From the IMG/VR virus record IMGVR_UViG_2645727555_000011: a stretch of DNA of 6,377 nt. One strand, given 5' to 3'. A program made the position numbers and the translations under genes. The notes below the pieces were generated by a model that was not told the origin of the DNA, ran no database searches, and saw only the letters and a list, made by a program, of their open reading frames with translations. Positions 1-3,053 of the stretch are shown here, piece by piece (the stretch's first letter is position 1; the number at the start of each line of letters is the position of its first letter). Origin of the DNA: a virus. Its lineage: Duplodnaviria; Heunggongvirae; Uroviricota; Caudoviricetes.

Positions 1-3000
1 CGCACACCCAGCGAGCCATCCGCCGCCCGCGTCAGAGGCATAATGGCTTCAGGTCCGGCCTCCCCCATCAGCCCGGCCCCTTTTGCAAAGGCAAAGTACG
101 TGGGCGTATCCACAATACTGTTGCTGTACGCACTCAGGTTTGCCGAGGTATACACGCCGCCTTTTGCATTGGCCACCGCCCCGCCCAGCCAGTCACCAAT
201 GCTGCCGAGAAATCCTCCCGCACCGGACATACCGTTTGCCGCCGTCTTAATTCCGTTGACAATGGCCGCATTCATAAGAACTTTTGATATTTCCTGCAGT
301 ACGGATGAGGCCCAGTTGCGCCATTCCACTTTGTTTCCGTTCAGCATCTCCGTGATGTTATTCACCAGTCCTGAAATCCCCTCCGTTGCCAGCTGTGCTG
401 CCTGAGAGGCGTAATCGGATGCATTGTCCACCCAGTTACTGAATCCCTCCTGCAGCCCTTTCTGCCAGTCCGCACGCTGCACATCCGATTCGGCATAAAA
501 GGCTTCCTGCTCTTTCAGACGTTCACTCAGATACTGTGCATTCTGCGCCAGCGCCTGTCTGTAAAAATCCTCACTGATATCCCCGGTCTGATACTGAGAC
601 TGAAGGTCCGCATCCTTCTGGCGGAAGCTGTCGCGGATCTGCTGCAACTCCCGCATGCGTTCTCTGGCTCGTTCCCCCTGCCCGTACCCCAGCAGTTCAG
701 CATCATTCGACGCACGCGCAGCCGCATTCTCATTCTTCAGTGTCTCTTCCCGGGATCGCAACTGTTCCCGGATTTTTTGCTGGTCAATCAGGGTCGCGTT
801 ACGCAGCAGTTCCTGCTTCTGCATCTCCGTCAGGGTTTTCAGTTCGCCCTGCGCAGTCTGGTACTTCAGCTTCGCCAGCTCTGTATACTGACCCGCCAGT
901 GCCAGTTGCTCTTTCTGCTGCTTCAGCAGCCGGGAAAAACTGTCTTCCGCTTTTTCCGTCTCTGATTTTCCACCCCGGGATTTGGGTTTATTCGCCTCGT
1001 TATTGCGCCAGGCTTCCAGGGCATTACTGATATAACGTTGTCTCGCCTCCTGATACGGATCACCCACAAAACCGAGGTCATCCGCCGCATACCCCAGCCG
1101 GACACGCTCTTTTTCCTCCCCCTTCAGTCGGGACAGGGCCAGCTCACGCTCTGTTTTTGTCAGGGCGCTCTGCTGTTTATCATCCAGGGTGGCCTGCGGC
1201 AGCCGTAACGGCACATTCACCAGTCCCTGACGCTGCTGAAGCAGTTCATTCCCCAGCCCCAGCAGACGGTTGAATTCCGTATGCTGACCGTTCATAACCA
1301 GCATGGACTGGTACACCTTATTCTGCTCTGCCGCCTGCTGACGAATTAACGCCACACGACGGTCTTCCAGCCCGGCAAGCACATCCTGAATGGACTGCGC
1401 TTTTTCCTGCATCTGTGCCAGACGGGACTGCTCAACGGCAAGCTGCTCTGTTGCCTGAGCAAGCCCTTCCGTTACGGTCTTCACCGAGGTCAGATGGTTT
1501 ATCATGAATCCGTCACCGGTCGTCCAGCCCGGGTTCGCCAGAACATACTGATATCCTGCGATTTTTGCCTGCAGGGATTTCACCCGACTGGCCTGTTCAT
1601 CAATCAGCCGGTTCTGCTCTGTCAGCGCCTCCCGTGTTCGCCCTTCGTTATCTGAGGCTTCAGGCAGAGACATTGATGGCGTTTTATGCGCGATTTCATC
1701 TATCGTCAGTGCATACTGGCGCGCAGACTCCCTGGCCTGCTCCTGATTCTGGTACAGCGTGTACCATGCTGCAGCCCCCAGCATCACCAGTCCGGGTACG
1801 CCACCAACCAGCCCCAGCGCACCGCTCATCAGACGTGAGCCCACCGCCGTTGTACTGTTCAGCGCATTCTGGGCGGCGCTTCTGGCAGCAATATTTCTGT
1901 TCAGGCGTTCCTGTGTGGCCGCCAGACGGGCCTCTGCAGCAATCTGCATCTCCGTCCCGCGGGCTGCCGCCACGGCCTGCTGAGCACGGTACACGGCTGC
2001 CCTTGCCCGCGCCGTGGCAATCTGCGTTCCCCTGAACTGTGCTTCCGCCAGTGCAACTTCATTACGTGCAGCCGTCACAAGTCCTGCCGTGGCAGACATC
2101 GCTCCGGAGGCCATATTGCCAAAGTACCGGGCAACCCCGACGGCAACCAGCGCGCCCACGGCTGTTGCCACATTATCAATCTGTCCGGCAACACCGTTCA
2201 GCATGCCGGAGAGCGTTTTTGTCACCCCGCTGGCCTCATTCGCACCGCCCACCCAGGCCATAAAGGCGTTTTCCACCTTTGTGATACTACTGGAAACCGT
2301 TTCCGGCATGGCCGCATATTCATCACGCAATGTCCCCAGCTGGCTGATTAACGCGGGCACGACTTTATCCGCCGTCAGTTGACCATCGTCCGCCATCGCC
2401 TTCAGATCTTTACGGGCCACACCCATGCCTGCAGCCAGTGCACGAATGATCCGGTCACCACTTTCATTGACCGAATTAAATTCCTCACCGCGCAACACAC
2501 CCTGTGCCAGCGCCTGGCTGAACTGGGTGATCACCGAACCCGCCTCAGCCGTACTGGCACCGGAGATTTTCAGCCCCGTGGAAATGGCCTCCGTCACCTT
2601 CAGTACATCACCGGCACTGTAACCATATTCACGCATCGAGGCAGCCGAACGGGCAAACAGGGCCGCATTATCCGAAAAAGCGGTACCTGTCCGCTGACTG
2701 ATATCCATCAGCACTTTCTGTGATGACGAAAATTCATCGGATGACTGTGATGCCTGTTTCAGACGGGCATTCACGGAACTCCACTCATCCGCCAGTGAAA
2801 TCAGGTGTCCGGAGGCAAAGGCACCGGCAAATGCGCCAGCCATTCCGACAGCAGAACCGCGAATTTCCGTCAACTGGCTGTTCAGTTCTGCCAGGGCACG
2901 TCGCTGCTCCCGGGCTGCCGCAGCGGCCTGACGCCCGCCATTCTGCAGGGTCCGGTAATATTCACTGCCCATACGGGACGCCCGCTGGATCTCCGACTGG

Positions 3001-3053
3001 AATGACTGCGAATTTGCCGAAATTTTGATAATCAGTTCACGTAACGTCGCCAT
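1..3053 (-). CDS. Phage tail tape measure protein (TMP), C-terminally truncated by the left window edge; about 1017 codons in window
   Basis: Hand translation of the reverse complement from ATG at 3051-3053 (preceded in frame by TGA, with GGAG/AGGTG Shine-Dalgarno-like sequence upstream) gives MATLRELIIKISANSQSFQSEIQRA... with no stop down to position 3. It carries an N-terminal tape-measure-domain-like motif (..QALAQGVLRGEEFNSVNE..), glycine-rich hydrophobic segments, long Ala/Gln/Glu/Arg-rich predicted helical stretches and a lambda-family-like C-terminal region (..GEAGPEAIMPLTRAADGSLGV). It sits immediately downstream of the G/GT chaperone pair. Not in the ORF track, presumably because no stop lies in the window. 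Confidence 0.88.
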   Translation of the reverse strand, partial: MATLRELIIKISANSQSFQSEIQRASRMGSEYYRTLQNGGRQAAAAAREQRRALAELNSQLTEIRGSAVGMAGAFAGAFASGHLISLADEWSSVNARLKQASQSSDEFSSSQKVLMDISQRTGTAFSDNAALFARSAASMREYGYSAGDVLKVTEAISTGLKISGASTAEAGSVITQFSQALAQGVLRGEEFNSVNESGDRIIRALAAGMGVARKDLKAMADDGQLTADKVVPALISQLGTLRDEYAAMPETVSSSITKVENAFMAWVGGANEASGVTKTLSGMLNGVAGQIDNVATAVGALVAVGVARYFGNMASGAMSATAGLVTAARNEVALAEAQFRGTQIATARARAAVYRAQQAVAAARGTEMQIAAEARLAATQERLNRNIAARSAAQNALNSTTAVGSRLMSGALGLVGGVPGLVMLGAAAWYTLYQNQEQARESARQYALTIDEIAHKTPSMSLPEASDNEGRTREALTEQNRLIDEQASRVKSLQAKIAGYQYVLANPGWTTGDGFMINHLTSVKTVTEGLAQATEQLAVEQSRLAQMQEKAQSIQDVLAGLEDRRVALIRQQAAEQNKVYQSMLVMNGQHTEFNRLLGLGNELLQQRQGLVNVPLRLPQATLDDKQQSALTKTERELALSRLKGEEKERVRLGYAADDLGFVGDPYQEARQRYISNALEAWRNNEANKPKSRGGKSETEKAEDSFSRLLKQQKEQLALAGQYTELAKLKYQTAQGELKTLTEMQKQELLRNATLIDQQKIREQLRSREETLKNENAAARASNDAELLGYGQGERARERMRELQQIRDSFRQKDADLQSQYQTGDISEDFYRQALAQNAQYLSERLKEQEAFYAESDVQRADWQKGLQEGFSNWVDNASDYASQAAQLATEGISGLVNNITEMLNGNKVEWRNWASSVLQEISKVLMNAAIVNGIKTAANGMSGAGGFLGSIGDWLGGAVANAKGGVYTSANLSAYSNSIVDTPTYFAFAKGAGLMGEAGPEAIMPLTRAADGSLGV

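Follow-up and report, generated by a model that had tools for sequence, protein, structure and literature searches.

Introduction

In phage lambda, the tape measure protein (TMP) of the tail, gpH, is a trimer whose C-terminus lies in the tail tip and which is encircled by 32 rings of gpV (PMC10721106). Tail length in such systems corresponds to ~0.145–0.15 nm per TMP residue (PMC5099701). For HK97, whose TMP is gp16, two proteins are described as needed for genome injection: PtsG in the inner membrane and the chaperone FkpA in the periplasm (Cumby et al. 2015, cited through PMC5099701). Here we compare with these two systems a TMP gene at the left edge of a 6,377-nt stretch of caudoviricete DNA (IMG/VR record IMGVR_UViG_2645727555_000011), the whole of which is referred to as the window. 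Bases 3–3053 on its minus strand are almost certainly the first 1017 of ~1080 codons of the TMP gene of an Escherichia coli prophage that is an HK97/lambda-like siphovirus, incomplete only through a contig break in a draft assembly. The gene is already known and very common, a routine member of a tail module that is itself widespread among E. coli prophages. That the open reading frame (ORF) track accompanying the sequence lacks it is a bookkeeping artefact at the contig end. All coordinates below are window positions.

Results and Discussion

The open frame encodes a tape measure protein

Translation of the minus strand from the ATG at 3053–3051 gives 1017 sense codons and no stop down to base 3, with bases 1–2 left over as the start of codon 1018. 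This six-frame translation bears out the preliminary description of the window, which had proposed from the letters and ORF list a frame of roughly 1017 codons open to the left edge. Over bases 1–3053, the TMP frame is the only one free of stops; the other two minus-strand frames hold 51 and 52, and the plus-strand frames between 17 and 24. At a stop probability of 0.041 per codon, set by base composition, 1017 open codons would arise by chance with P ~3.8e-19. The start codon is the one annotated in relatives, and a Shine-Dalgarno-like sequence, GGAGAAAGG, stands 3 nt upstream of it (3057–3065, minus strand).

The translation is matched by tape measure models along most of its length. Three Pfam models score above their curated cut-offs: PF06120 Phage_HK97_TLTM (308.2 bits against 24; profile positions 1–292 of 295, residues 395–686), PF20155 TMP_3 (192.8 against 41; residues 83–272) and PF09718 Tape_meas_lam_C (63.3 against 23; residues 862–933). 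Two NCBIfam models do so as well, TIGR02675 tape_meas_nterm (79.8 against 21.35) and TIGR01541 tape_meas_lam_C (223.7 against 104.75), the latter over profile positions 2–306 of 332, where the contig edge ends the alignment. A further match, of 1338 bits, pairs residues 1–1015 with phrog_339 ('tail length tape measure protein'), and the sequence matches in the PDB are to tape measure chains only, lambda gpH among them. Together with 98% identity to annotated TMPs, these results uphold the tape measure call, and both the N-terminal assignment (TIGR02675, PF20155) and the lambda-family C-terminal assignment (TIGR01541, PF09718) made in the preliminary description.

The rival idea that the frame stays open by chance or does not code, or that its product is something other than a TMP, has next to no probability. 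No point in its favour was found, and it is excluded by the chance expectation (~4e-19), by the multiple curated TMP models passed, by the 98% identity to annotated TMPs and by a canonical synteny.

The absence noted earlier concerns the ORF track alone: reading frames that extend past the edge of the sequence are left out of it, and the deposited gene calls for the contig, DF970339.1, include a 1017-aa partial CDS at this position. What the track does list on the minus strand below 3053 is three short ORFs, at 527–733 (68 aa), 923–1105 (60 aa) and 1901–2062 (53 aa). Two such ORFs had been counted earlier, a number that is right at a 60-aa cut-off; they had been placed in other frames, and all three share a single one, offset by 1 from that of 3053. 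The plus-strand ORFs beneath the TMP gene, taken earlier for proline/arginine/serine-rich antisense shadows, contain 17–44% Pro+Arg+Ser and are Ala/Ser/Pro-rich, so that the description fits them only in part.

Close relatives and substitution pattern

In 90 records of Stx1a-, Stx2a- and Stx2c-converting phages, the tail region shares ~98% identity with the window, whose tail module is that of these long-tailed phages. Among 5,426 complete E. coli genomes, ~1,240 match 80% or more of the window's length, at up to 8 places per genome; near-identical copies number up to 7 per genome, in about 1,200 of the 5,426. The best whole-window identity to anything is 98.1%. Equivalents of the TMP itself occur in Stx1a-, Stx2a- and Stx2c-converting phages and in E. 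coli prophages (e.g. WP_000212952.1). The RefSeq record of the Stx2-converting phage Stx2a_WGPS2 (genus Sawaravirus) labels it 'tail tape measure protein' (YP_009909099.1; 3243 nt, 1080 aa). The window protein aligns with this reference without gaps over residues 1–1017, with 995 of 1017 residues identical (98%) and the start codon shared, and the flanking genes are likewise ~98% identical in nucleotide sequence across the 6377 bp. The two differ by 22 amino acid substitutions, and the window copy ends 63 residues earlier.

Of 98 nucleotide differences between the window and the Stx2a_WGPS2 TMP gene, 73 fall at third codon positions, and the differing codons comprise 74 synonymous and 22 nonsynonymous ones; such a pattern is the mark of a protein-coding gene under purifying selection.

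Contig ends and integrity of the gene

Reverse-complemented, the window equals the complete 6377-bp contig DF970339.1 of assembly GCA_001297725.1, and both contig ends fall inside coding sequence. Because the window is the whole contig, the TMP gene is cut by an assembly break, with the loss of ~63 C-terminal residues; as far as can be seen, the cut was made by assembly and not by biology. The missing 63 residues are read from the 98%-identical, 1080-aa reference YP_009909099.1, where they run RAVGSMNG...GGMLSG.

Multi-copy modules are the usual reason why short-read assemblies break, and in general terms the left break may be attributed to multi-copy prophage paralogues. No sharp copy-number jump was found at the left edge, the first 150 nt of the window occurring at 2905 places and the central 150 nt at 2541 places in complete E. 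coli genomes, each in up to 7 copies per genome, and no tandem repeat was found within the reference TMP gene. At the other end, a tandem array of 162 bp x 3.3 (54-aa repeats) in the reference begins 129 nt past the right end of the window; in reference coordinates the repeat region spans 10499–11031 and the portal-like gene that contains it 10033–11256. Plausibly, this array caused the right-edge break.

Alternatively, the genome itself might hold a truncated or inactivated gene within the remnant of a defective prophage. Degradation is frequent in such prophages; in close relatives the adjacent portal genes bear annotations as pseudogenes, frameshifted or partial, and there is a transposase close to the tail genes; and the 3' end of the TMP gene lies outside the window. 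Set against this are the lack of any stop or indel in the 1017 codons when compared with intact 1080-aa homologues, a strongly synonymous substitution pattern, the coincidence of the window with a complete contig that ends in coding sequence on both sides, and the multi-copy nature of the module in relatives, the usual cause of short-read breaks. We consider a genuine truncation quite improbable, and retain the reading of an assembly break in an otherwise ordinary gene.

Mismatches to three close relatives are patchy across the window, ranging from 0 to 18 per 200-nt bin, and are concentrated in the TMP gene and at the far right end (5601–6377, adaptor and portal-like genes). Their pattern differs between two prophage copies of one genome (E. 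coli E2863), and short (150-nt) window pieces are 100% identical to different paralogous prophages within one genome. Such a pattern points either to mosaicism by recombination between prophages that share a host or to a consensus into which the assembly collapsed them. In the latter case the contig would be a consensus or chimera of near-identical prophage copies, and the exact 1017-aa sequence might exist in no single prophage. That whole-window identity reaches only 98.1%, while 150-nt pieces match different copies perfectly, speaks for such a chimera, as do the patchy mismatches that differ between paralogues. Yet similar mosaicism is normal in lambdoid phages and is seen between paralogues in finished genomes, the reading frame is undisrupted, and three other public contigs (1.4–3.1 kb, ending before the TMP gene) encode an identical major tail protein. 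A chimeric origin is unlikely.

Most of the patchy variation between co-resident copies falls in the TMP gene, whose central third has diverged furthest from HK97 gp16. This variation could also reflect selection, either for host entry factors other than PtsG and FkpA or for evasion of sibling prophages whose superinfection exclusion targets the TMP. We hold this to be an improbable proposal, to which neutral mosaic recombination is the alternative.

Domain organization and comparison with HK97 and lambda

From its sequence, the protein is an HK97-type TMP with a C-terminal module that is common to lambda. Its TMP_3 domain (PF20155; residues 83–272, window 2238–2807, minus strand) contains the region matched by TIGR02675 (residues 157–231, 2361–2585, minus strand), which includes the motif LRGEEFNSVNE at residues 187–197, confirmed as first read. 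The tape measure chains 9occ_M and 8rk3_A in the PDB match residues 33–295 and 33–467, respectively. The HK97-type central domain (PF06120) occupies residues 395–686 (996–1871, minus strand), and the lambda-family C-terminal region (TIGR01541) extends from residue 725 to residue 1017 at the contig edge (3–881, minus strand), with the PF09718 core at residues 862–933 (255–470, minus strand).

The hydrophobic, Gly-rich segments noticed earlier are present at residues 67–88, 287–316 and 406–434 and are Gly/Ala-rich; they were delimited by 19-residue Kyte-Doolittle windows at a score of at least 1.2. The second of them (residues 287–316; 2106–2195, minus strand) is rich in Gly, Ala and Val. The third, SRLMSGALGLVGGVPGLVMLGAAAWYTLY (residues 406–434; 1752–1838, minus strand), is the strongest, with a maximum Kyte-Doolittle score of 1.73. 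HK97 gp16 has it conserved at the aligned position, and it is a candidate for an element that interacts with or inserts into membranes.

HK97 gp16 (NP_037710.1, 1089 aa) aligns with the window protein in a single BLASTP alignment, residues 1–1017 against 1–1016, with 53% identity. The N-terminal ~330 and C-terminal ~330 residues are highly conserved, hydrophobic segments included, whereas the central ~350 residues are far more divergent and carry several indels. The two loci have the same neck-tail gene order and both have a G/G-T chaperone pair, frameshifted by annotation in HK97 and by prediction here. Unlike the window, HK97 has the moron gp15 between its chaperone and TMP genes; the window has a 50-nt spacer there instead. 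This spacer, between the T stop and the TMP start (3054–3103), contains CTGCTGTGGCAG followed by T8, and a gp15-like insert is absent from it.

The relationship to lambda is narrower. Residues 733–932 align with residues 477–698 of gpH (NP_040595.1, 853 aa; PDB 8iyk/8iyl/8k35) at 26% identity, and residues 510–724 of the gpH chain 8iyk_H align to the TMP C-terminal region; outside that region similarity is undetectable. The preliminary description had spoken of a lambda-type C-terminal region, and homology there is clear, but the closest family overall is the HK97 type and the likeness to lambda is confined to the C-terminal ~200 residues. The two loci also share G/G-T chaperones upstream and, in the window's relatives, M-L-K-I-J-type tip genes downstream. 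The window TMP is ~230 residues longer than gpH, which would imply a longer tail.

Tail assembly chaperones and a predicted frameshift

The TMP gene lies directly downstream of a chaperone pair. The first member, an analogue of lambda G, encodes 124 aa (3409–3783, minus strand) and matches the full PF06222 Phage_TAC_1 profile with 205.6 bits, as well as phrog_344. The gene ends in ...AGA AAA AAG TAG, which includes the canonical -1 slippery heptamer A AAA AAG (3412–3418, minus strand) one codon before the G stop (TAG, 3411–3409). The second member is a T-like ORF (3104–3385, minus strand), whose frame, -1 relative to G, extends as a T-frame extension over 3104–3418 on the same strand and matches PF06223 Phage_tail_T with 69.1 bits. 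Thus both chaperone families are present, the second in the -1 frame overlapping the heptamer. Compared with the -1 frame of HK97, the T frame is 59% identical, in an alignment that starts at the residue after the slip site and hence upstream of the ATG of the ORF. In phrog_14766, a fusion profile of 224 positions, G covers positions 1–122 and T covers 133–222.

Since the -1-frame homology reaches the slip site and phrog_14766 spans both G and T, a 226-aa G-T fusion is predicted, and it is likely to be the real product. Public records annotate T as a separate ORF of 93 or 69 aa; the HK97 product is annotated 'translated due to a -1 frameshift'.

Neighbouring genes

All other genes of the window share the strand of the TMP gene and stand in a canonical HK97-like order: adaptor, head closure, gp10-like protein, tail terminator, major tail protein, G, T and TMP, followed in relatives by M, L, K and I. 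These last four lie past the contig end and are present in the 98%-identical relatives. The neck and tail-completion genes, all identified by Pfam and PHROG matches, encode a head-tail adaptor (5717–6043, minus strand), a head closure protein (5356–5706, minus), an HK97 gp10-like protein (4913–5359, minus) and a tail terminator (4572–4916, minus); the models matched across 4572–6043 are PF11367, PF04883, PF05521 and PF05135, and phrog_347, 5, 25 and 40.

The major tail (tube) protein (3789–4505, minus strand; 238 aa) matches phrog_158 with 394 bits and carries a C-terminal Ig-like domain, with Ig_2, Ig_3 and I-set matches at residues 149–233; its tail-tube matches are weak. The Ig-like domain has its analogue in the C-terminal domain of lambda gpV, and PHROGs labelled 'Hoc-like head decoration' match it as well. 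The tail terminator and major tail genes are 66 nt apart, and in this gap sits a terminator-like hairpin, CCCGCCGCGTGCGGG then TTTTTTATTA (4528–4542, minus strand), with a T-run to ~4518. HK97 has a putative terminator annotated at the same position.

The right edge of the window holds the C-terminus of a portal-like gene, open to that edge (6040–6377, minus strand), which encodes the final 111 residues of a protein of 407 aa annotated 'portal protein', at 95% identity to the reference. The fragment has a weak CBM_5_12-like match (21.7 bits, under the cut-off). The ORF track gives it as 6040–6348, from an internal ATG, although within the window no stop precedes that ATG in frame. Relatives have a portal region that is split, or that is annotated as pseudogenes with frameshifts.

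Promoter and terminator consensus counts in the window are at or below shuffle expectation. No RNA families (Rfam) or tRNAs (ARAGORN) were found in it, and it holds no toxin gene or other cargo.

Proposed assembly mechanism and tail length

The steps of a mechanism may be sketched by analogy with homologues and protein families. The two ORFs upstream of the TMP gene would yield G and, by slippage into the -1 frame at A AAA AAG, G-T; both would keep the long helical TMP soluble. An oligomer of TMP (a trimer in lambda) would be anchored in the tail-tip complex by its C-terminus, and the major tail protein would polymerise round it up to the TMP N-terminal end, whereby the length of the tube would be fixed. 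On infection, the TMP would be expelled before the DNA, and its hydrophobic segments may aid envelope crossing, as proposed for HK97 gp16. For 1080 residues the predicted tail is about 160 nm long, with some 40 tube rings by lambda scaling (~40). A tail on the order of 150 nm, as first suggested, was therefore a reasonable estimate and slightly low, as the relatives' 1080 aa give ~160 nm.

This account has several limits. First, leftward extension through contigs with identical neighbouring proteins did not recover the TMP stop codon beyond the window, and this copy is presumed intact. Second, the TP901-type core model (TIGR01760), one of the families in which a match had been anticipated, gave none among the NCBIfam hits at E<=0.01, and the protein is not assigned to that family. 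Third, literature searches found no measured tail length for a phage carrying this exact protein or module. Fourth, frameshifting, length determination and membrane insertion are carried over from homologues and should be read as predictions for this phage. As regards the identification itself, there is no contradicting evidence.

Significance

The case illustrates a point of quality control, in that a short contig may lose its largest gene from any ORF track which drops frames running off an edge. Phage TMP genes are especially exposed to this loss, as multi-copy prophages fragment short-read assemblies inside them. For the element itself, the TMP gene is a sign of a lambdoid phage with a long, siphovirus-type tail, of the sort by which Shiga toxin genes are carried in enterohaemorrhagic E. 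coli.

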